46,052 bases of DNA from Macrostomum lignano (taxonomy: Eukaryota), in NCBI GenBank assembly GCA_002269645.1, contig NIVC01004436.1, positions 1-46,052 on the forward strand. The letters run 5' to 3'. Of the stretch, positions 3,959 to 46,052 are shown piece by piece. Position numbers and translations under genes: made by a program. The notes beneath the pieces are model-generated. The model worked only from the letters and a program-made list of their open reading frames with translations, was not told where the DNA came from and made no database searches. Each line of letters starts with the position of its first letter. Within the stretch, counting starts at the first letter, position 1.

Positions 3959-30915
<26,957 letters not shown>

Positions 30916-30954: not shown

Positions 30955-31604
30955 TAATTCCCCCTGTGAGACTTGGCATCTCAGCATTCCCCCTGTGAGA
31001 CTTGGCATCTCAGCATTCCCCCTGTGAGACTTGGCATCTCAGCATTCCCCCTGTGAGACTTGGCATCTCAGCATTCCCCCTGTGAGACTTGGCATCTCAG
31101 CATTCCCCCTGTGAGACTTGGCATCTCAGCATTCCCCCTGTGAGACTTGGCATCTCAGCATTCCCCCTGTGAGACTTGGCATCTCAGCATTCCCCCTGTG
31201 AGACTTGGCATCTCAGCATTCCCTCTGTGAGACTTGGCATCTCAGCATTCCCTCTGTGAGACTTGGCATCTCAGCATTCCCCCTGTGAGACTTGGCATCT
31301 CAGCATTCATCATTTTGGGATTATAAGAATTGGCATCTCAGCACCCCCCTTTGGGATTATAAGAATTGGCATCTCAGCATCCCCCCTTTGGGATTATAAG
31401 AATTGGCATCTCAGCATCCCCCCCTTTGGGATCATAAGAATTGGCATCTCAGCATCCCCCCCTTTGGGATCATAAGAATTGGCATCTCAGCATCCCCCCT
31501 TTGGGATTATAAGAATTGGCATCTCAGCATTTCCCCTTTGGGATTACAAGAATTGGCATCTCAGCATCCCCCTTTGGGATTATAAGAATTGGCATCTCAG
31601 CATC
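30955..31604. repeat. Intron 26 minisatellite: 29-bp unit switching to a related 36-38-bp unit at ~31305, cut off by the Polinton
   Basis: CAGCATTCCCCCTGTGAGACTTGGCATCT, then CAGCATCCCCCTTTGGGATTATAAGAATTGGCATCT; ends abruptly at ...CAGCATC|AGTAGT. Confidence 0.9.
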
Positions 31605-31875
31605 AGTAGTATAGAAAAAGACGCTTCTAGACCCAGAGCACTTTTTTAATGACCGTTTTAAGGGTCTAGAGGGGGGACACGGGGGGTAAATAAAAAAACA
31701 CATCTAAACACCATTAATACATCTAATCACCCATAATCACCCCTAACAATAAAAATCACATCCCAACACTTCCAAACACTCCCCAACACCCCCCTCGCGT
31801 CCCCCCTCTTAAGACCTTACAAACGGCCATTAAAATAAGGTCTGATCTGTAAGCGTCTTTTTCTATACTACTACT
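31605..31875. repeat. Terminal inverted-repeat cassette: arms 31605-31686 and 31789-31875
   Basis: AGTAGTATAGAAAAAGACGCTT (31605-31626) is the exact reverse complement of 31851-31872. Imperfect pairing continues to the G6/C6 tracts. Confidence 0.9.
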
Positions 31876-31957
31876 CTATAACCCCTTGCCCGCGCCGCAG
31901 GCGCGAAGGGTCGGAAAGAATAGAAGCTATTTATAGTCAGCTCACCTACCCACCCAA

Positions 31958-32055
31958 CATTCCATTTAGACCAGATTTTAGACCAAACAAAACTAGACTA
32001 TCGTTTTGGTTTTCGTTTTCAAAAATTTGGTCTAAAATCTGGTCTAAATGGAATG
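31958..32055. repeat. Perfect 30-bp inverted repeat with a 38-nt spacer
   Basis: CATTCCATTTAGACCAGATTTTAGACCAAA (31958-31987) and TTTGGTCTAAAATCTGGTCTAAATGGAATG (32026-32055). Confidence 0.95.
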
Positions 32056-32093
32056 CAGACAATCTTTTTCTGTTACTAAAAATAGAACAAAAA

Positions 32094-32492
32094 ATGACAC
32101 ACGTTACACATATGCAAAATCTGAATGAATTGCAGGTAGGAGACCCAGTTGAATACCGAGGTGAGGGGCTTTTTGATGTGGTTGGAACAGCAGCAAATTT
32201 TGTTAAAGACAATATGGGGCTTATAGGGCAAGCTGGCTCTGCAGCAGGCTCTATAACAAATGCTGTAAAAGGAGGAATTGAAGCAGCTAGAGCGGCAGAA
32301 GAACTAAAGAAATTGAGAGATTTTAACGACACCCTCTCACAAATAAATGCAATAAAAGATTTAAAGCTGGCACAAGCCGCACAACCAACAGAAACCCCCA
32401 CGAAAAGCGCACCAATAAGTAATAAAGATATTCAGGATTTTAATAAAATGTTAAATACTATTAAAGGTGGAAAAGGATTAAAGAAATTTTAA
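32094..32492 (+). CDS. Putative virion core/membrane-lytic precursor (adenovirus pVI-like), 132 aa
   Basis: YRGEG|LFDVVGTAANFVKDNMG looks like a cleavage site followed by an amphipathic helix. C-terminal KGGKG|LKKF. Function is inferred. Confidence 0.5.
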   Translation: MTHVTHMQNLNELQVGDPVEYRGEGLFDVVGTAANFVKDNMGLIGQAGSAAGSITNAVKGGIEAARAAEELKKLRDFNDTLSQINAIKDLKLAQAAQPTETPTKSAPISNKDIQDFNKMLNTIKGGKGLKKF

Positions 32493-32502
32493 CAATATAA
32501 AA

Positions 32503-33489
32503 ATGGACACAGATAACGACCGCTTATATTTTATAGGAGAAATTGTAGACACTTTAGATTTGGATGATAATAAACATAGCCACACAATGTTAAAAAGATT
32601 GGATCGATTAGGTAAAAAGTTTGACTACGACATCGATACATTTAAACTCGCAGCAAAATATGCACAAGAAGGAAGGCCAATATCCTTTAAGAATCGCGGC
32701 AGAAATTATAGGTTGACAGACTCCGATGTGAAATTTTTAATGGAGACTCACACTAAAAAGGACGGCGGATTACTACCCATTCTACCGCTTCTTTTAGGGC
32801 TTGGCGCAGCTGGAGCAGTCGGTTTAGCCGGAAAAAGAATTCATGATAATGTAAAACAGCTAGGAGAGTTAAGAGCGAAACAGGGGGGAATCTTGCCCCT
32901 TGCAGCTTTGCTCCCAATAATTTTTGCAGGAATTGGAGCAGCTGGAGGAGTTGCTGGCGGAGCAGCTGGAATTGCAAAAGCAGTAAATGACAAAAAAGCT
33001 GCGGACGAAAAAGCTAAAAGAGAGGCCGAATTTCAAAGACAGCAAATAACGCAGGACGCACAATTTAAACAAAAACTTATCGATACAATTAATAGTAGTT
33101 CAGCAACAGCAGAGCAAAAAAGAAATGCAGAAGCTAGGTTAGCAGCCGGAAAAGGTTTACTCTTGCAAGGAACAAATCACGGGAATGGTTTGGTACTAAA
33201 AGGAACAACCCAAGGAAGTGGAGTTGTAGCAGATAAACTACATGAATTTGGTCAAACTTTAGAAAAAACGGGTGAGAAAGCTAAAGGATTTTTTGACAAT
33301 ATTGGATCCAATTTTAGACCAGCTGTTCAGAAAATTTTTAATAAATTAGGAAAAGATTTTAACATCATTGAAAAACACGACGGAAGCGGATTATATCTCG
33401 AAATGCGACCAAAAGCAGGTTCAGGAATTTTCTTAAATTCAAACGTTATGGGCAATGGATTGCTATTACCAAAAGCAGATCTCGAATAG
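32503..33489 (+). CDS. Core polyprotein with two adenovirus pX/mu-like segments, 328 aa
   Basis: GGLLPILPLLLGLGAAG and GGILPLAALLPIIFAGIGAAGGVAGGAAGIAKA resemble the adenovirus pX C-terminal GGILPLLIPLIAAAIGAVPGIA. Six further GxG-hydrophobic motifs follow. Confidence 0.7.
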   Translation: MDTDNDRLYFIGEIVDTLDLDDNKHSHTMLKRLDRLGKKFDYDIDTFKLAAKYAQEGRPISFKNRGRNYRLTDSDVKFLMETHTKKDGGLLPILPLLLGLGAAGAVGLAGKRIHDNVKQLGELRAKQGGILPLAALLPIIFAGIGAAGGVAGGAAGIAKAVNDKKAADEKAKREAEFQRQQITQDAQFKQKLIDTINSSSATAEQKRNAEARLAAGKGLLLQGTNHGNGLVLKGTTQGSGVVADKLHEFGQTLEKTGEKAKGFFDNIGSNFRPAVQKIFNKLGKDFNIIEKHDGSGLYLEMRPKAGSGIFLNSNVMGNGLLLPKADLE

Positions 33490-33573: not shown

Positions 33574-36500
33574 ATGGAAGCAATTTTAGCTCAAATCGAC
33601 AACCCTGAACTTAGAGCACAATTAATAGCTCAAATCGATGCACAACGAATTGCCGATAGGGCTGAAATAGAAGCAAGAATTAGGGCAGAAAATGAGATAC
33701 GTTTAGAAAGACAATTAAATGATATTAATAACCCCCAACCACAAGGACAAAATGGAGCTGAAGTAATATATATAGATATAGATATAAATACAAATTATAA
33801 AGAATATTTTAAACAAATGAAAGATAAATTAAAGACCATATTAAACAATTATACTATAAGGCCAAATAACAAACGACAGCCAATTAAGTATAAAATAGAA
33901 GTTGAAACAGAATTTAAAAAACCAAATATTCTTAATGCAAATTCAGAAATTGAAGTAATAAATAACTTTTCACAAGAATCATATAAAACATTATTATCAA
34001 TGGGAAATTACAACAATCAATTCGATCAAATAGAAGCTGAGTTTGATGAATGGATAGATAAGATGACAGAAAACGGATCTGGGTTTATATTTGTATCCTG
34101 TAATTCAGCAACAGTAAAGATTGCACCCATAGAAATTCTTAAAGGACGATCACATATGAAGCTCAAATTTAAATCACCTATGATTATAAATCCAGACAAT
34201 AAAGATAATAAATGTTTATTATGGTGTTTATTAATTCATAAATATCACAATCAAGTAGAATCACACATTAATAAAATATATAATTATAGACAATATGAGG
34301 ATGAAATAATAATGAAAAACATATCATACCCAGTAGCAATAGATGATATATATAAGATTGAAAAAATGAATGGTTTAAATATTAATGTTTTTACAATTGA
34401 AGAACCAAAAGATCTAGAAGAAATTCAGCAGGTCGATCCAGAATGGTATAAGAAAAACTGTTATCTTGTTAAGCCAGCAACTGATATAACAGCACCAGAT
34501 CAAATCGATCTTTTGTACATGCAGCGCGAAAATGAAACACATTATATATACATAAAAGATATTAGTTCTTTTTTAAGAGAAAATAGAAATAGATATCCAC
34601 TATGTAGAAATTGTTTTACATTTAAAAAGGATGAAACAGCTCTTAAAAACCACCAACGATTTTGTTTAGATCACAAATTTACTAATGCTATAATGCCAGC
34701 ATCTGAAGATGCAACCCTAAAGTTCCAACAACATTATATGGCAGTTAAAAAACCAATAGTAATATATGCTGATTTTGAAGCAACAAATGTTCCCTTAAAA
34801 GAATCACAGACGGCATCTGATGATGGGGATCATGCAAAGCATGCGACCCTACGGGACGAATGCACAAAAAAATTGGCACAACAGTTTCCGAATAGTTATT
34901 GTATATATGTACACTCTGTAGCTGATCATATATTTAAATCAAGGATGATTACTTACCACGGTAATGATGCAGCTAAGCACATGGCAGAATCATTAGTAAA
35001 TGTATTTGAATATATTCAAAATCAATATGATAAATTATCAAAAAATATTAATATGACAAATAAGGATAGAGACAATTATAAAAATGCAACAAATTGTTTT
35101 ATGTGCAAAAGATATTTAAGTAAGAAAAATAAGATACGAGAACATTGTCATCTAACAGGAAATTATCGAGGGGCAGCATGTAGATCATGTAATGCAAAAG
35201 AAGGAAAAGGATGTAAGGAAATACCAGTATTTTTTCATAATGGTTCCGGATATGATTTTCATTTCTTAGTTCGAGAATTGCTTCATTTAGGAAAGGATGA
35301 ATATGAAATAAATATATTACCTAAAACATCAGAAAATTACATATCAATAACATATGGTAAGAAATACTCCCATCTAGTTTTTCTAGATTCCTTGAGATTC
35401 TTATCAACATCTTTAGCAAATGTTGTTTCATCATTAGTTCCAAAACCATGGGATTTAGAAATAGTAAAGAAAAACTTTCCAATACTATTGAATCGTTTCA
35501 AAAAAGAAAAACTATCCGAGGAAGAACTAATGCTATTAACTCGTAAGGGCATCTATCCATATGAATATGTAACATCTGAAGACGTATTTTTTCATACCGA
35601 ATTACCCCCAATTGAAAAGTTTTATTCAACATTATCACAAACAAACATAAGTGAATCGGATTATGAACACGCTCAAAAAGTATGGAAATACTTTAATTGT
35701 AAAACATTTAAAGATTATCATAATCTATATCTTAAAGCAGATGTTCTCCTATTAGCTGATGCATTTGAAAACTTTAGGAATCATACATATGAGAATTTTA
35801 AAATTGATCCCGCATATTGTTTCAGTGCACCGGGATTAACATGGGCTTGTGGTTTGAAACATACAGATGTTAAGATTGATTTACTAACTGATCATGATAT
35901 GTTGTTAATGATTGAGAGAGGAATTCGCGTGGATTCTCGGGTGTACTAGGAGATAGATATACTAAAGTAAATAATAAGTATCTTCCAAATTATAATAAAA
36001 AAGAAAAATCATCATATGTATTATATCTAGATGCAAACAATTTATACGGTGGTTGTATGAAACAAAAATTACCAATAGCTGATTTCCAATGGGAAGATGA
36101 CCCCGATTATTACAAAAATATTCCCGAAGGAAGGGGCTGTATCGTAGAAGTGGATTTGCAATATACTCGGGAAGCAAAAGCAAAAACATATAAATATCCT
36201 TTAGCTCCAGAGCATTGTTCAGTTAATGAAGATGATTTATCACAAACACAAAAAGATTATCTTAAAGCAGATAATGCAAAACATCTAGCAACAAAAAAAT
36301 TAATATTAAATTTACATGATAAGAAAAACTATGTAGTGCATTATAAGCTTCTACAATTTTATGAAAAGCAGGGATTAAAAGTGTCTAAAGTACATCGAAC
36401 AATATCGTTTATTGAGGAAGATTGGTTAGCTAAATATATTGACTTTAATTCAAATCAGAGACAGATGTCAAAAACAAATTTTGAGAAAGATTATTGGAAA

Positions 36501-37571
36501 TTAATGAATAATGCTTTTTATGGAAAAACGGTTGAAAATATTAGAGATAGAACCCAATTCCATTTAGAAAAGGATATTGATAAAGCAAAGAAATATTTCT
36601 CAAAACCTAACTTTAAAGACTTTATAAAATTTGATGATAACTTTATGGGTATTCATATGAGAAATAAAACAACAAAATTTCTTAAACCAATATTTATTGG
36701 AATGGTTGTTTTAGATTATGCAAAGCTGGTAATGTATGAATACTATTATGATGTTATAAATAAAACATGGCCAGATAACTATCCAATATATGCAGACACC
36801 GACAGTTTGGTATTTAAGGTTGAAACAGAGGATCGGGCAAAGCCCGCGAACCAAAGGTTCGATGTCTATAAAGATATGGAAAAAATTAAGGATACATTGG
36901 ATACCTCCGACTATCCGGATAACCATCCTTTAAAATCAGATCAAAATAAAAAAGTTGTACTTAAAATGAAAGATGAATTAAATAGCAAAATCATAACCGA
37001 GTTTATAGCAATAAGATCAAAATGCTATGCATTTAAGGTTTTAGGACAGGAGGGAGAGGTAAAAAAAATAAAAGGGGTATCAAGAGCAGCAGTAAAAAAG
37101 ATAACATTTGATGATTATAAAAACGTACTTTTAGATTACCTTAATACAATTGAAAATTATCATGCTCCACAATATCGATTAAATTCAGATAAGCATCAGA
37201 TGTTTGTCATCGAGACAGATAAAAAAACATTAAGTCCATTTGATGATAAAAGATATTTAGATGATAAAATTAAAACATATCCATATGGTTTAAAAGAAGA
37301 GATAAAAAATATGATAAAAGATAAAAAACAAAAAGAAGATATAATAAGTAAATATAATGAATACAAAGCGGCAATAAATAATTATTATTACGATTGTGAT
37401 TGTGAATCCGAATGTGATTGTGAATATAATACATTTCTAGAATATGAAAAAGATATAGATAATTATTATTCAACATTTCCAAAAGAACTTAAAAAATTAA
37501 ATAAGGAAAAAGTCTTGAATAACTGGAAGAGATTAACAGAAAAATTACTTATCGGGTCTGTAAAAAACTAA
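33574..37571 (+). CDS. polB: Protein-primed family B DNA polymerase, split by one missing base at ~35930
   Basis: ExoI IYADFEA, ExoII FHNGSGYDFHF, ExoIII YLKADVLLLAD. Endonuclease-VII-like Zn module CFMC...EHCHLTGNYRGAACRSCN. Restoring one G gives GIRGGFSGVLGDRY...YLDANNLYG (motif A). Motif B KLMNNAFYGK, motif C YADTDS. Confidence 0.95.
34829..34860 (+). mobile_element. Double-hairpin insert, copy in the polB exonuclease region
   Basis: AT CATGC AAA GCATG CGACCC TAC GGGACG AA. Confidence 0.75.
36832..36863 (+). mobile_element. Double-hairpin insert, copy in the polB palm just after YADTDS
   Basis: AT CGGGC AAA GCCCG CGAACC AAA GGTTCG AT. Confidence 0.85.
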
Positions 37572-39799: not shown

Positions 39800-41765
39800 G
39801 ACGTACTACCACAACCTGCGCCACGAATAAAATGTGCAGCATCCGATCCTCCAGTTCGAGCACCAAAACCCATAAGGTTCCAGATTTATCTAAAGTTCCC
39901 CAAGTTCCACTATCATATGTGAAAACGTTCTGCCAATGAGGGTAAAGAATCACCAGCAACATTGTATGATGAATCTATACCAAACCCTTTGATTTAAAAT
40001 ATTAATTTCAAAAGATGCCAATCACCGTTATCAATATTTGCATAGGCTACAGTTTGATCCGCGTCAGTATTAACATCGCGCGGCTTGATCCGTCTGATTT
40101 TTTTTACTCCAAAACCAAATTTATCATGCCACTCACTAGCAAAAACTATCAATCCGGCGTCGGTTGATAATCCAGATCCAAATTCCGATGTTGGACGTTG
40201 GTGACAGTATGCATAAAACCAAACCGCATCTGCACCATCTCCTGTAGCATTAGCAACTCGGAAAAAGAAAGACGCAGATATATTTTGAAAATGTGTGAAA
40301 TTGAATTGTAAAGCACCACTTACTCCAGAAGTTTCACGAGTAATTCTAGCGCCGTTTTGATAATCGATATAAGAAGCGTCACCAATTAAAGAACCGACTG
40401 GATATATATCTCCGGCGGTTGTTGGATTTTGATATCCAGACCAATTGCAAATTACTGGTTCGAACAAGGCCGCATCAATAGCAGGTATTCCATCCAATTT
40501 ATTTTTATCGCTTCCAGACATTCTACCATTTGATGTTGGAGTAGCTAGCTGATCTACGTACGCTCGCGGAACTGCAGAAAGTATTTGAGTTGGCCAATTA
40601 AGATCTTGAATTTCAACACGGTGTTCAAATAATTGTATTTGACGAACCTCGATAGGTTGTGTACCGGTACCACCAGTTGGGAAGAATACGCTATAATATT
40701 TCCAAAAATTAGTCGTTAAATTAGATAGAGCAAATGATGTTGCTTGAACTGGTGATCCCGACGTAGTTAATGTCGTCCATGAATCGGTAGCAACATTTTT
40801 TGCGCGAACCGACCACCCCGAGGGTATCTCAATTGTTTCACTGCCTGTAATTCTTAATTCAAATATTCTTCTATTATAACCTAAAAATTCAAATTGAATT
40901 TCCATATTGGTTGTGGTTCCGGTATTTGGTGACCATTGTGTCGCAAGGCTTCCATCTCCAACTCGAAAAGCTGTGTTGCCATTTTCAGATGCTGTAAGAA
41001 CAACATCAGGATTTGAAGTATTTGATGTAAGCGGCGTGGTAAAAATATCGGCGTCGGTTGCATTAGCTCGCTCGTTTACTTGGCCTAGAGTTATCGAGTC
41101 TGCGTTATCTGTTCCAAATAATAAATTTGTTAATTTAAAATTATTCATATTAATATTACCACTACGAGTGGCAACTTGATTATCGACATAGTTCTTATCA
41201 ACCACTGAATCACTAGTTGTAATTGAAACATTTATAATTCGGTTGTTGCTCATATCTAGGTTTCCGGTTGCGGTGGTTTGAACATAACGTGAATCAGAAT
41301 CAGTTCGAGAATAAGAATCAGTTACATCTCTTTTTAAATTTAATCCATTATCAACTTCGGTTTTGGTATAAGAATCGGCTACGTTCCGTTTCAAATTTAA
41401 TGAATTATCAACTTCGGTTTTGGTATAAGAATCGGCTGTTCGTTTTAAATTTAATGAATTATCAACTTCGTTTTGGTATAAGAATCGGCTGTATTGCGTT
41501 TTAAATTTAATGAATTATCAACTTCGGTTTTGGTATAGGAATCGGCTACGTTCCGTTTCAGATTTAGTGAATCATCTATTTGAGTTTTGGTATAGGAATC
41601 TGCAACATTTCTTTTTAAATTTAATTTATTATCAATTCAGTTTTTTTATAACCTTCATCTCATTAATATATCGATTATCTCCAAATGTAACACTTATTCC
41701 ACCAGATGTGCCACCACCACCACTACTTGTTGTTCCGTTCCATGAGGGTGTTCCAGAAAATAACA
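39800..41765 (-). CDS. Fibre/spike adhesin: 19-aa shaft repeats, discoidin (F5/8C)-like domain and legume-type lectin domain; several frameshifts; both ends approximate
   Basis: (NLKRNVADSYTKTEVDNSL)n; GNINMNNFKLTNL...DSITLGQV; AFRVGDGSLATQWSP...WKYYSVFF...EVRQIQLF; GRMSGSDKNKLDGI; GARITRETSGVSGAL...DGADAVWF...GFGARTGGSDAAHFIR. Confidence 0.7.
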
Positions 41766-41776
41766 TTTTTTACTGT

Positions 41777-42246
41777 CTATTTTATAGAGTCTAAAATCGT
41801 GCCATCGGCTCGCATGCTTTGCATGATATTCTTAAATACTTCGGGGTTTACACGAGCTTCATTCGAAAGTCGATATAAAAAATACAACGCCGCTTGCCCG
41901 CAATAACTTTTATCAAAGGTTTGAAATTGTTCATGATGATCTCCACATAAACGATTTTTAGTATGATTAAATTTATCTTTTATTTCCTGTAACGGAGGAA
42001 GCGCGTATGAATCAAAAAAATAAACAAGTTTAGGTTTGAATAAACTGCCGACCAATGAACACCATTTTCTTTTGTTGTTTCAATATTAACAATGAAAGAT
42101 CCATATTGTGGTAAGTCTTTGATCTCATCTCGCATAACACATCTGAATGGTTTTATTTTTAACTGCCTCGCCCAATTTGTTAATTCGATATTGCTTGTTG
42201 TGTCCGTTCCATATCTTTGTTTAAAATCATCCCACGTCATGGTCAT
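41777..42246 (-). CDS. Adenain-like cysteine protease (Polinton PRO), frameshift near 42050
   Basis: IVNIETTKENGVHW (His), YFFDSYA (Asp), EQFQ...SYCGQAALYFL (Gln, Cys). Confidence 0.9.
41796..41827 (-). mobile_element. Double-hairpin insert, copy at the protease C-terminus
   Basis: Reverse complement: AT CATGC AAA GCATG CGAGCC GAT GGCACG AT. Confidence 0.8.
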
Positions 42247-42247
42247 T

Positions 42248-42457
42248 TTATGTTCCTGAAAAACTCTTGGTTTTAGTTAGTTTCGTAGGTGTGGGTTTTA
42301 ACAATTCCTTTCTTATTTTATCAGCTTGTAACTGCCTTAATTTTGCTAGTTCTAGTTCGTAATTATCTTCAGCTTTTTTAACTTTTTCTGATTGTTTTTT
42401 TATTAAATTATTATTATTATCGTGCTTTGCACGCGAACATGTTGTTCGATTACCCAT
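42248..42457 (-). CDS. Small basic hypothetical protein, 69 aa
   Basis: AAAAATG start, coiled-coil-like, contains a double-hairpin insert. Confidence 0.5.
   Translation of the reverse strand: MGNRTTCSRAKHDNNNNLIKKQSEKVKKAEDNYELELAKLRQLQADKIRKELLKPTPTKLTKTKSFSGT
42419..42450 (+). mobile_element. Double-hairpin insert, copy in the 69-aa ORF
   Basis: AT CGTGC TTT GCACG CGAACA TGT TGTTCG AT. Confidence 0.85.
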
Positions 42458-42470
42458 TTTTACTATAGGA

Positions 42471-43252
42471 TTAAACCTGTTTTATACGTAAAATTATTGT
42501 TATTGACTGCCCACCAAAACTTATTAATCTATCGCTTTCATCTACAATCCTAATATAAATTGATTGAACATTATATTGATTTAATGGGTAATATATTGGG
42601 GTTTGAGGTGATACAATCATTTTCTCTCCAATTGGAACAGCAAGAAATGGGATTGAATAAATAATTCCACGTTGAACCAAAACTCCATTATTATCTGTTA
42701 TATAACCGCCGTTTGAATGTCGGTTGTTATATTAATTGTATTACTCCACCCTCAATTTTCCACTGTATCACCGGTGCTTGATGTGGTAACTATTCGGGAA
42801 TTAAATCCAAGTATGGTTCTGAGTGAATTTGCAATTGTGAAATCAACCTGATATCCGGATCCTAGTGATAGTGTGAATCTGCCAGACGGTAAATCAACAC
42901 CTATAACAATTGCTCCTGCTACCCAATCACCATTAGTTGTTAATTCTCCTTCTATATAAGCATTCAAATCAGTATAGCTATACGCTCCTGGGTTAACGCT
43001 AAATGTTGTCCAATTGGCTCCGGAATCTTTAGAATATCTAAATTGATTATTTGTTGCATTAATTAATTGAGGCATGTTGAAAACCGAAAATAGAATTAAA
43101 CCTATTTGATAACTTAGGCTTTGATCAAGTTGTAATGGATCGCGCAATTGAATCCGTTGCTCGCTGGTTGTCATTATAAACTGTAATGTTGTACTAAATT
43201 TTGAATTAGTTCGATCTACCAATTGTTTTATAGTATTTAAATTTGTAGTCAT
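42471..43252 (-). CDS. Minor capsid (penton, single jelly roll), frameshifts near 42750-42700
   Basis: IQLRDPLQLD...YQIGL...INATNNQFRY...PGAYSY...SLRTILGF and GIIYSIP...SPQTPIYYPL...IYIRIVDESDRLISFGG match the Polinton penton pattern. Confidence 0.85.
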
Positions 43253-43266
43253 TTTTATAGTGGGAA

Positions 43267-43293
43267 ATCGAACCGTTCGCGGACTCCGTCGAT
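43267..43293 (-). mobile_element. Shortened double-hairpin insert, intergenic (ATPase-penton)
   Basis: Reverse complement: AT CGAC GGA GTCCG CGAA CGG TTCG AT. Confidence 0.65.
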
Positions 43294-43297
43294 CGTG

Positions 43298-44091
43298 CTA
43301 TGTCTCTTCTTCCTCATTATCTTCTTTTATCAAATTTGTTAAAATTCTATGTTTCCTTTCTAACCTCGGATTGATATAAATATGTTTGTATTGGCTATCA
43401 TCCCAAATTTTTTTACACATACTTTTAAATGGTTTTGCATCCAATCCGGGATTAAATCTAGCGTGAATATTTTGTAGATCATAGTTATCTAAATCAAACA
43501 TTACACAACAGCTAGCATTCTTTTTTATAATCGATTCTAATTCTCTAAAGGATTGAGTAAGATAAAAAGCTCCAATTCCATCTCCTCTACCACTAACAAA
43601 AATTTCCTTTTGCAATTCTTGATCACCGTCATTAATACAATCATCAAAAATAATTAGTGTTTTATCATGTTTTGGAATTTGATCATAGGCTAATCGGGTT
43701 GATACTCTAACAGTTGGGGCTCGATCGGACGAAGTCCGCGACCCTTCGGGCGATCGGTGATGTTTTCTGGCTGTTGTGCCATTGTTTTACATAAATCCTC
43801 AATGTCTGCTAGATTAAATCGCGGTTCGTCATCATCCTCATATTGCTCATATGCTCTTAACATTCTAAACAAGACATCTTTTTTTAATTTGTTTTTTAAT
43901 CCATGTTTAAGAAATTCATAATATTTTATTCTAGGTTTATTAGTATAAATTATTAAATTATTATAGTCTAACATTCCATCTGTTGTTAATAAATCGTAAA
44001 CAAAGTGTGTTTTTCCTTTACCTGATCCTCCGATTACTAAACAAAGAAAAGGATCATTTGGAAATATCTTATCGTGTTTTGCCTTTACCAT
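43298..44091 (-). CDS. A32/FtsK-type genome-packaging ATPase, one missing base at ~43751
   Basis: Walker A IGGSGKGKT, Walker B LIIFDD, GRGDGIGAFYLTQS. Confidence 0.92.
43724..43754 (+). mobile_element. Double-hairpin insert, copy in the ATPase (1 nt short)
   Basis: AT CGGAC GAA GTCCG CGACCC TTC GGG-CG AT. Confidence 0.8.
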
Positions 44092-44156
44092 TTTTAAAGA
44101 AATAATTTAAATAGGCGCGACGGTCGAGACCTGACAGCGACGTGCACTGCATCATT

Positions 44157-45624
44157 TTACAATGGTGCGTCCCGAACAATCGTGCCATCAGCTTTAGCAA
44201 TTGACATATATTCCTCTAGAAACAATACGTGGGCGTCAAGTGCCTGATTACCGGTTTTATTAATCTCTAACATATAATTAAGTCCAATATTGGCTACGTT
44301 TTCTTTCTGTGCCGTTAGATCATAAACAACCACTGGATGAATGTTTAGAAACTCTGTGGGTGTGTACTGAGGGACGGCATACGCTTCATTTTTAGCATAA
44401 TCTTGATAATATTTTATAAAATCATTAACATTATTATTTGCTATATTTAAATTTAGGGGGTCTTTAACCGGATAATATTGATCATCAACCTGCAGGCGGA
44501 TATTCTGAACATTAAACTCGTTAATTGCAGCAACTGCATTGTCTGTTGCGGTGGCTGCTTGTTCTGCTATGTCACCCGATTGAAGCCAATATAAATCCCC
44601 ATTTGCTCTTTTACTCCTTCTATTTGTTATTTTAAACCAAACAAAAATATATCTCACCCGACGTTTTGATGTCAGTATTTGCCACTGGAATGAATCCTGG
44701 TTATTATTAATGGTTCGCATAAAATGTCGACGATTCAAATAAAATATTTCCTGATCATGCGTTAACTGATTATCGATGTGTTTTAAAAGTGGGCTGTTAC
44801 CTCAATAGTTGGTACGACTAATTGAATTGAATCTATACGAACTGCTATATCGGTTGAAATTGAGGTTCCATAAAGTATCCTAGGCTGATATCCACCAGAT
44901 ATTTGCAACTGTATCCCAAATTTTAATCCTTTCCATACCCGATTTGGTGAGAAAACCCAAATAGTGGAAAGATTGAAAAGTCCTGCTCATATGCTGTTGC
45001 TGTGGTTAAAACCGCGACTGGGAATTTATTCTGACGATCTATAAAACCAGTATTAATATCTTTTGTATTAGTCATAGTGGTTACAACTGGAACTATGTTT
45101 GTATTAAGGTAAACAATTAGCGCTGCAGTATCTGCACCGGCTGCGTTTTGTACATTAGGGAAAACTACTGCTTGCCCGTTACCTTTATCCGGCATCCACC
45201 CAACATTATCACCAACTTGTTTTGATAAATAAGTATAATTTAAATGTTTCAAAACTCCATTAATCTCTGCGGGGTTTGATGATGTCTCAACCTCAGCACC
45301 ATTAACAGTTAGTTGAGCTTGGGAAAAACATTTATAAAACCAATCATTTTCATTATTATTCCGGATCGATCTGCGATATCTCCGCTGCAAGAGCAGTTCC
45401 ATCATTTCTAGTATACAACCATCTAACGCGGAAAAACGCATTTTTCATATCCAATATAGTGTTGGTTGCGCCGATGTCAAAAGTTACCGTTCCAGTAGTA
45501 AAGTTATTTGAATTATCACTTGTTGGTAGGGTATAATTTAAATCTTTGCTCTGACCTCATTAATATACTGTCGGTGCTTTTTGAAATGAAATTTATCACT
45601 CCACATAGTTTTTGTTTCAGCCAT
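44157..45624 (-). CDS. Major capsid protein (double jelly roll, hexon-like), several frameshifts
   Basis: TVTFDIGATNTILDMKNAFFRV, FSQAQLTVNGAEVE, RVRYIFVWFK, NIRLQVDDQYYP, TPTEFLNIHPVVVYDLT. Confidence 0.85.
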
Positions 45625-45658: not shown

Positions 45659-46052
45659 ATGAGTCAATTTATGGACGTTGATGGAGAGTTAGCGATTTAT
45701 AAAGAGAAGCAAAGATATTCTGATTTTGTTAGAAATTTACAAAAAAGAAAGTTAGGAATACAATTAGCGGGTGAAAGATTTGCTGCTCCTTTTGTTAATC
45801 CTATTACTGGGAAAATTAGTGAACTAGAAAAAACAGATAAAGATCTTCTGGAAAAAATTGCTAAAATACTGAGCCAAAAGAGGATGAACTTTTAGATGAG
45901 CCGCCTGCTTATGATGTTGATCAAGCTCAAATTGAGAGTTGCAGAGATTAGGGCCAGAACGGGGTGGAGTTGATGAATATCCGAGAGCTGCACCAACTAG
46001 TATTGCTGTGACAGATTTAGGTAATAATAATTATCGAATTGGTGGAGTTGAT
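45659..46052 (+). CDS. Polinton hypothetical protein, 5' part (likely frameshifted near 45890 and running off the window)
   Basis: YSDFVRNLQKRKLGIQLAGERFAAPFVNPITGKI resembles a conserved Maverick ORF N-terminus (from recall). Confidence 0.45.

Follow-up and report, generated by a model that had tools for sequence, protein, structure and literature searches.

Why should a Polinton carry two of its termini, facing each other, at a single end? The question is raised by a 46,052-nt stretch of Macrostomum lignano DNA (positions 1 to 46,052, forward strand, of contig NIVC01004436.1 in assembly GCA_002269645.1; hereafter the window) in which a Polinton begins at position 31605 and displays, within its first 271 nt, a second terminus in inverted orientation. 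The outer arm of this cassette is the integration junction, and the inner arm is an inverted copy of the outer arm lying inside the element; the layout recurs in other Polintons, where the two arms change together. Such recurrence points to an inherited replication feature, and not to a separate mini-element or an assembly error. On balance we lean toward the reading that the structure is a recurring, heritable and functional fold-back terminus of Polintons, in which the outer arm works and the inner arm pairs with it.

Both sides of position 31605 agree that a Polinton left end begins there, as the first-pass annotation had proposed. A host minisatellite (31288 to 31604; 8.5 copies of a 37-bp unit in an intron of a VPS13-like gene) is broken mid-unit by the insertion, and none of four motifs from the unit reappears to the right of 31604; because the array stops mid-unit and never resumes, 31605 is the insertion junction, and the inserted unit must exceed the cassette and extend past the end of the window at 46052. 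DNA to the left is that of the host, with GC-rich VPS13-like exons and an HSP70 fragment among minisatellites; to the right of the cassette the GC content is 0.33, compared with 0.50 in the host, and genes for a family B DNA polymerase (PolB) and virion proteins follow. By its sequence the element is a Polinton, as judged from the PolB, the (AGT)2 host junction, and the virion module. The last 6 bp of the minisatellite (31599-31604) are the predicted target-site duplication. Around the cassette itself no such duplication was found in any of 14 tests (lengths of 3 to 9 bp, two candidate right edges), which together with the interrupted array upholds the earlier view that this is not a plain insertion of a MITE (a miniature transposable element with inverted repeats). 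The outer arm (31605 to 31686, + strand) is the true left terminus, and starts with the (AGT)2 motif which the relevant passages of PMC8097293 give as the commonest Maverick end, the alternatives being (AG)3 and (AC)3A. Introns of the VPS13-like gene that hosts the Polinton (5954-30939) are packed with minisatellites of 14 to 46 bp.

The cassette (31605 to 31875) is opened by two AGT units and closed by three ACT units. Between the outer arm and the inner arm (31789 to 31875, - strand, an inverted terminus copy with three AGT units) lies a 102-nt spacer (31687 to 31788) whose + strand is devoid of G (49 A, 34 C, 19 T) and which stays unpaired as the loop of the fold-back. Reading the inner arm from 31872 gives perfect complementarity over the outer 22 bp; a global alignment of the arms matches at 72 of 86 columns, made up of 22 of 22 and then 50 of 64 (about 78%), and blastn aligns them at 81% identity over 84 columns (E = 2e-13). 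The predicted single-strand fold of the 271 nt has an energy of -56.2 kcal/mol, against -17.3 ± 3.3 kcal/mol for shuffled versions (z = -11.9), none of the 200 shuffles folding as well, and the terminal 20-nt sequence occurs twice in the window at up to 3 mismatches, for a chance expectation of 0.00. Thus the size of the cassette, its AGT and ACT ends, and its 22 perfect outer base pairs, all described at first pass, are confirmed by sequence and by fold. The nested stems reported within each arm stand in part: their positions (9 bp at 31626-31634/31662-31670, spanning 31626 to 31670 on the + strand of the outer arm, and 8 bp at 31812-31819/31836-31843, spanning 31812 to 31843 on the - strand of the inner arm) and their shared loop motif (at 31644 and 31821) are borne out, but they are not separate sequences, having a common AGACC/GGTCT core and differing by about one compensatory pair plus different extensions. 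Since the stems share this five-base core, and each arm folds weakly alone (-8.0 and -5.4 kcal/mol), they do not constitute independent evidence. TTCT, present at positions 21-24 of the outer arm, is missing from the inner arm.

That the arrangement is not peculiar to the window emerges from a survey of related elements. GTDB genomes were scanned with an alignment of 26 PolB sequences, yielding 52 loci (designated here by L numbers) on contigs in metagenome-assembled records, most likely from eukaryotes or their viruses; the presence of 52 Polinton-type PolB loci in bacterial and archaeal bins, 11 of them under the accession prefix CBDDTI, is probably eukaryotic or viral contamination. Retroviral-type integrases (rve) are found in relatives L006, L010, L015, and L045. 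In a strict scan of the 52 loci and the window, each start at a terminus-like hexamer was required to have, no more than 1.2 kb further on, its first 20 nt repeated in inverted orientation with at most 3 mismatches. Four matches emerged from 574 starts in 434,322 bases (the window, L010, L021, and L035), and a scan with 14 motifs returned the identical four; block shuffles gave no match in 29 of 30 runs and one match in the other. All four lie at the left end, upstream of PolB or of the first gene, and the complete fold-back ends of the relatives span 129 nt in L021 (AGT type), 159 nt in L010, and 104 nt in L035 (both ACAC type). Two further loci, L030 and L032 (mutually 99% identical), are cut off within the outer arm by the contig start and have their inner terminus 62 nt before PolB; the L032 fold-back taken alone is weak (p = 0.02). 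Altogether 5 of 13 candidate ends in relatives fold back (3 complete, 2 cut by the contig start) and 8 do not, so that the earlier statement, which gave a normal Polinton one such terminus per end, goes too far; the 13 ends were picked by hand, the other 39 of the 52 loci having no recognizable end and being left unscored, and the 8 that do not fold back include two of doubtful standing as termini (L003 and L006), one interrupted by a run of N beginning about 110 nt inside (L015), and one that lies downstream of PolB (L018). Single ends are at least as common as fold-back ends. One candidate cassette, L009 4984-5261, was rejected as an unrelated insertion inside PolB, and phage records gave no match by blastn of the end or tblastn of PolB. 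Contigs L030 and L032 (positions 1-123 of each) are missing the first 9 to 11 nt of the outer arm, a hint that assemblies break at the fold-back; the two inner tips disagree at 2 of their last 11 bases despite the 99% identity of the contigs.

Fold-back ends do not form a single lineage. In a PolB tree of 23 rows (a subset of a 61-row quick tree, picked after the latter had been seen and with the fold-back labels preset; L052, which lacks the C-terminal part of PolB, is absent from both trees), the six fold-back elements, including that of the window, fall in three clades. Monophyly of the trait is rejected (log-likelihood lower by 427.5; approximately unbiased test, p = 5e-7), and L010 and L035 are sisters to the single-ended L004 (support 96/94). 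The tree requires three changes of end type, at least two of them forced by strong branches; a trait so patchily distributed may have been gained repeatedly, or gained and then lost, and ends may also be moved by recombination. The fold-back persists between elements that are 73-76% identical, while between L010 and L035 the loop has been wholly replaced. A comparison of 27 terminal positions in L010 and L035 finds 18 the same, 7 with compensatory changes on both arms, and 2 broken; for L021 and L030 the corresponding numbers are 8, 6, and 6 of 20. These counts come from an ungapped mapping of the arms, and shifts can therefore inflate the compensatory class.

The two arms are alike without being equivalent. 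Specifically, i) in 5 of 5 relatives, from two clades, pairing extends to position 19 and is followed by one extra inner-arm base at position 20; ii) TTCT is present at positions 21-24 in the outer arm of the window, and in L010, L015, L035, and L039; and iii) CT follows the inner ACTACT in all four AGT-type cases (the window, where it comes after the third unit, L021, L030, and L032). A second working origin or terminus, as conjectured in the first-pass annotation, fits the extra base at position 20 and the absence of TTCT from the window's inner arm less well than does a non-equivalent pairing arm. The motif GTTCTG at position 20-21 is common to termini with different tip repeats (L004 1088, L015 90, L039 577, L010 4628, and L035 2544).

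How might such an end function? When the bottom strand is folded, its terminal 3′ base is predicted to pair with the inner arm, leaving the element unpaired ahead of it as template; this is the case for the window, L010, L021, and L035, and the terminal 3′ base of L030 is likewise paired when that contig is folded as far as it is present. The predicted folds of four single ends leave the tip unpaired in three and partly paired in the fourth, L052. The suggestion that the cassette could permit fold-back priming is therefore in keeping with its predicted geometry, in which the bottom strand has its 3′ end fully paired. The standard Polinton model includes an extrachromosomal single-stranded intermediate, according to secondary descriptions that include passages of 10.64898/2026.07.28.741278. 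Excised or displaced single strands would fold back in vivo, and the polymerase could exploit the fold either for priming of the second strand or for proofreading and restoring the tip; a local fold-back would thus provide a single strand with both a primer and a duplex end without recourse to the far terminal inverted repeat (TIR). Correction of the tip against the inner copy would keep the outer 19-22 bp complementary while deeper positions drift, and hence would produce perfect identity at the tip that declines inward. The inner arm would be a non-equivalent partner, with integration and protein-primed initiation proceeding from the outer arm only, and protein priming would be retained beside the fold-back; a hairpin-ended product might be opened by the integrase or by the endonuclease VII domain of PolB, both of them candidates only. 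A more ambitious version, which we put forward as doubtful, is that in some Polintons protein priming operates together with hairpin priming of the parvovirus kind, the end type having arisen or been kept in at least three lineages: once excised, the single strand would prime its own second strand on the inner arm, the one-base asymmetry would silence the inner arm as an origin, and the inner arm would store an unprocessed end, the CT after the inner ACTACT being the dinucleotide trimmed by integrase.

The polymerase itself is of the protein-primed type (pPolB), and its gene is broken across two frames, an N-terminal piece (33574 to 35949, + strand) and a C-terminal piece carrying the polymerase motifs (35916 to 37571, + strand). 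That of L021 is unbroken, with an ORF of 1248 aa. The C-terminal piece has 1175 relatives at E <= 1e-20, the best of them 55% identical, and the exonuclease part is structurally similar to phi29 polymerase (Z 14.2, root-mean-square deviation 3.0, 184 aligned). The N-terminal piece contains a terminal-protein-like domain (residues ~63-185), a vOTU-like domain with Cys214 and His323, and an exonuclease with an inserted endonuclease VII domain (492-554). In the AlphaFold model of this piece (91-row alignment, pLDDT 83), the predicted fold of residues 63-185 comprises four strands together with two helices, and Ser169 lies on the GSG loop leading from the second helix to the last strand; Ser occupies this position in 79 of the 91 alignment rows, and passages of 10.1101/2024.03.18.585575 locate the linking Ser or Tyr of such domains in Polintons between helix 2 and strand 4. 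A Foldseek search gave Y-family polymerases as the top matches (E = 2e-3; none at E <= 0.001), in agreement with the little-finger origin of the domain given in the same passages of 10.1101/2024.03.18.585575. All five fold-back relatives have the Ser motif and the vOTU-type Cys, as do the single-ended L004, L015, L039, and L052, and the endonuclease VII domain is found in fold-back and single-end elements alike. Retention of the Ser motif in both end types implies that protein priming was not replaced by the fold-back, and loss of the terminal protein in fold-back elements was rejected. Endonuclease VII was likewise rejected as a fold-back marker, since it is present in L004, L015, L052, and the clade mates of L039 (none was found in the stretch of L039 that was scanned). 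Three PolB relatives of 1500-1700 aa (P0026, P0035, and P0058) carry Pfam families PF14528 and PF14890, which we take to be homing-endonuclease and intein families.

We wish to stress that several observations weigh against a functional fold-back. No change at the protein level distinguishes the trait, since elements of both end types have the Ser motif, the vOTU Cys, and the endonuclease VII motif. With 8 of 13 ends in relatives having no fold-back, including that of L004, the sister of L010 and L035, the structure is dispensable. Fold-back elements are known by their left ends only. The window copy pairs over 22 bp without a bulge at position 20, and the presence of GTTCTG at the "inner" spacing in single-ended L004 makes it less likely that an arm is inactivated by the extra base. 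L021 and L030 have their loops the same way round (scores of 72 forward and 34 in reverse) and so give no sign of the flip/flop expected from simple rolling-hairpin replication; the palindromes of L021, L030, and L032 all have the same orientation and the bulge is on the inner arm in 5 of 5 relatives, but independent ends are few. Finally, the covariation, drawn from an ungapped mapping of two element pairs, is also predicted by passive copy-correction. This last point belongs to a rival which we regard as possible, though we would not expect it to be the answer: protein-primed replication may occasionally snap back and duplicate the tip in inverted orientation, passive copy-correction then keeping the arms matched while the structure plays no part in the life cycle. 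A neutral by-product of this sort would account for the patchy spread over the PolB tree (three changes), the existence of single-ended sisters, the retained terminal-protein domain, and the nearly perfect 159-nt palindrome of L010, which is what a fresh snap-back should look like; it is harder to reconcile with a layout that outlives wholesale replacement of the loop between L010 and L035, with 19 bp and an inner bulge common to two clades with different end motifs, and with the CT that follows the inner ACTACT in every AGT-type case.

Three other explanations were weighed. The inner arm could be a working second terminus, allowing the 271 nt to be released or copied as a mini-replicon or non-autonomous element. 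Non-autonomous Polintons do exist, and proper (AGT)n and (ACT)n ends stand opposed here with 22 perfect base pairs; against this, positions 20-24 of the inner arm do not follow the outer-arm pattern, no free cassette was found in the window, the 52 loci, or the GTDB genomes (exact terminus pattern, 0 matches), none of which is the host genome, and the 19-nt tips of eight termini match only known or candidate ends plus one sequence in L007 at 3 mismatches, again in searches to which the host genome was outside the scope. We therefore judge a mini-replicon improbable. A composite locus, with a small element or the remnant of a nested inverted Polinton abutting a Polinton body that lacks its own left end, strikes us as more improbable still. 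The arms have diverged by ~16-19% and contain indels, which would suit two subfamilies, a target site could be represented by the 6 bp that follow the inner arm, and L018 also has a GC mini-hairpin directly outside a terminus; yet the same layout is found in other clades 62-219 nt before the first gene, the DNA beyond the inner arm in L010 and L035 is shared element sequence, and no other left-end motif was found from 31876 to the first genes. Least credible of all, to the point of being nearly negligible, is a fold-back chimera of assembly or amplification: several genes of the element are split over frames, possibly by read errors, but a chimera should have near-identical arms where these differ at 14 of 86 columns, and the same structure is seen in independent public contigs. 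A functional fold-back terminus remains the reading we prefer.

The rest of the left end, and the body of the Polinton as far as the window reaches, hold further features. Immediately inside the inner arm is a GC-rich mini-hairpin (31883 to 31910; -11.2 kcal/mol), followed by a perfect 30-bp inverted repeat with a 38-nt loop and repeated TAGACC motifs (31958 to 32055). Both the window (31883-31910) and L018 (4523-4552) have a GC mini-hairpin, its loop 3 nt long, immediately 5′ of an AGTAGT start, and the GGGGTTA flank beside the window's inner arm occurs also in L004; these likenesses could reflect either target preference or chance. AGACC/GGTCT occurs 8 times in the 456 nt from 31605 to 32060, and 8 times in the other 14 kb of the element; since the palindromes double the count, there are only about three independent sites, and the motif is possibly a candidate protein-binding site. 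An Rfam scan of the left end gave 18 generic hairpin matches, every one far under the gathering score, the 30-bp inverted repeat had no Rfam family at threshold, and no four-run G-quadruplex motif was found in the G-rich strand of the cassette loop (loops up to 12 nt). The first open reading frame (ORF) of the element (32094 to 32492, + strand, 132 aa) matches no Pfam family, and the next (32503 to 33489, + strand, 328 aa) offers a lead only to a pX-like virion protein (second-ranked match, 0.89; Adeno_PX on 20% of members; low recognition). Beyond PolB, and all on the - strand, are a probable maturation protease in two pieces (41777 to 42276; name inferred from ORF matches in L001 and L045, no Pfam match); a conserved Polinton ORF in two pieces that is probably a minor capsid protein, a name likewise inferred (42471 to 43297; E = 8e-18 to an L045 ORF without a Pfam family); a putative A32-like packaging ATPase in two pieces (43298 to 44106; Pox_A32 at E = 0.006-0.007, below the cut-off, and E = 2e-5 to the L045 ATPase); and a putative major capsid protein in pieces (44157 to 45444; 0.96-0.98 to capsid clusters, of low recognition value), whose ORF has no match among PDB sequences. 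A virion module of packaging ATPase and major capsid protein is thus present, each gene in pieces and individually a weak match, and the splitting of genes over frames indicates that this copy is decayed or bears assembly indels. None of four rve integrase queries matches the window at E <= 0.05, the element continuing beyond the window end. The element is placed in the Beta adintovirus/pPolB2 class by an absent PF03175 match and the nuclease insertion, not by a reference tree. A 57-bp tandem array inside the Polinton (41311-41651) overlaps the start of a fiber-like ORF (39994-41514). Among the relatives, inverted duplications of 1.5-1.9 kb are found downstream of PolB in three loci of one Polinton family (L037 12370-21363, L040 1552-11321, and L042 11601-21364), and L010 has a ~4.7-kb tandem duplication over the C-terminal part of PolB and the integrase (6800-16200).

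The exit of Polintons, their second-strand synthesis, and the restoration of their tips have so far been modeled from sequence only, and covarying fold-back ends with single-ended sisters (L010 and L035 versus L004) supply matched pairs for surveys and for polymerase or nuclease assays. Even as a mere by-product, the fold-back would mark snap-back events in Polinton replication. Annotators should be warned that the cassette resembles a MITE, and that short-read contigs can break inside it, as do L030 and L032.

The element shares with Polintons or Mavericks that have a divergent PolB the (AGT)2 end, the terminal-protein-like and vOTU-like domains, the inserted HNH-type nuclease, the A32 ATPase, the capsid genes, and a GC content below that of the host; it differs in its internal inverted terminus from the Polintons described there, which have one motif per end and paired TIRs (relevant passages of PMC8502044, PMC10748475, and PMC8097293). 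An internal inverted terminus in pPolB Polintons is nowhere described in the literature searched, which comprised passages of PMC8097293, PMC8502044, PMC10748475, PMC11296320, PMC11131425, PMC10120064, 10.1101/2025.02.07.637071, and 10.64898/2026.10.13.758929, Repbase, subscription papers, and the supplements of 10.64898/2026.07.28.741278 being outside the scope. Casposons are likewise self-synthesizing transposons whose TIRs can hold palindromes, but they are prokaryotic, use a Cas1 integrase, and have palindromes described only inside the TIR (passages of PMC4046053). The closest parallel is with the terminal palindromes in the TIRs of endogenous virophages (subtypes 1, 2, 5, and 6) and of a Polinton-like virus (PLV; subtype 4) of Halocafeteria seosinensis, which also lie at the element tip beside the target duplication, and for which hairpin priming has been proposed and an accidental origin named as the alternative (passages of 10.64898/2026.07.28.741278); the hairpin-priming model is therefore already described for virophages and PLVs, and what appears new here is the fold-back terminus in pPolB Polintons. 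As presented in those passages of 10.64898/2026.07.28.741278, the virophage and PLV palindromes belong to protist elements, measure 52 nt in the example given, were subject to a 10-nt gap limit, and accompany "preferentially" non-pPolB replicases, whereas the Polinton fold-backs span 104-271 nt, often have a large loop, accompany a pPolB with a terminal-protein motif, and show arm covariation together with a one-base asymmetry. The left-end hairpin of minute virus of mice (MVM) provides an analogy for that asymmetry, although a Polinton is a double-stranded integrating element with protein priming and has no homology to a parvovirus, and the element, as far as the window covers it, showed no Rep/NS1 nickase. 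In MVM the difference between GA and GAA makes one arm an origin and leaves the other inactive, and asymmetric resolution of the hairpin also preserves a single orientation (passages of PMC1185569). By analogy the inner arm of the Polinton fold-back may be inactivated in a similar way, for, like the MVM left end as described in those passages of PMC1185569, it is part of a 3′-terminal palindrome capable of self-priming whose arms differ by one nucleotide, the inboard arm being the longer.
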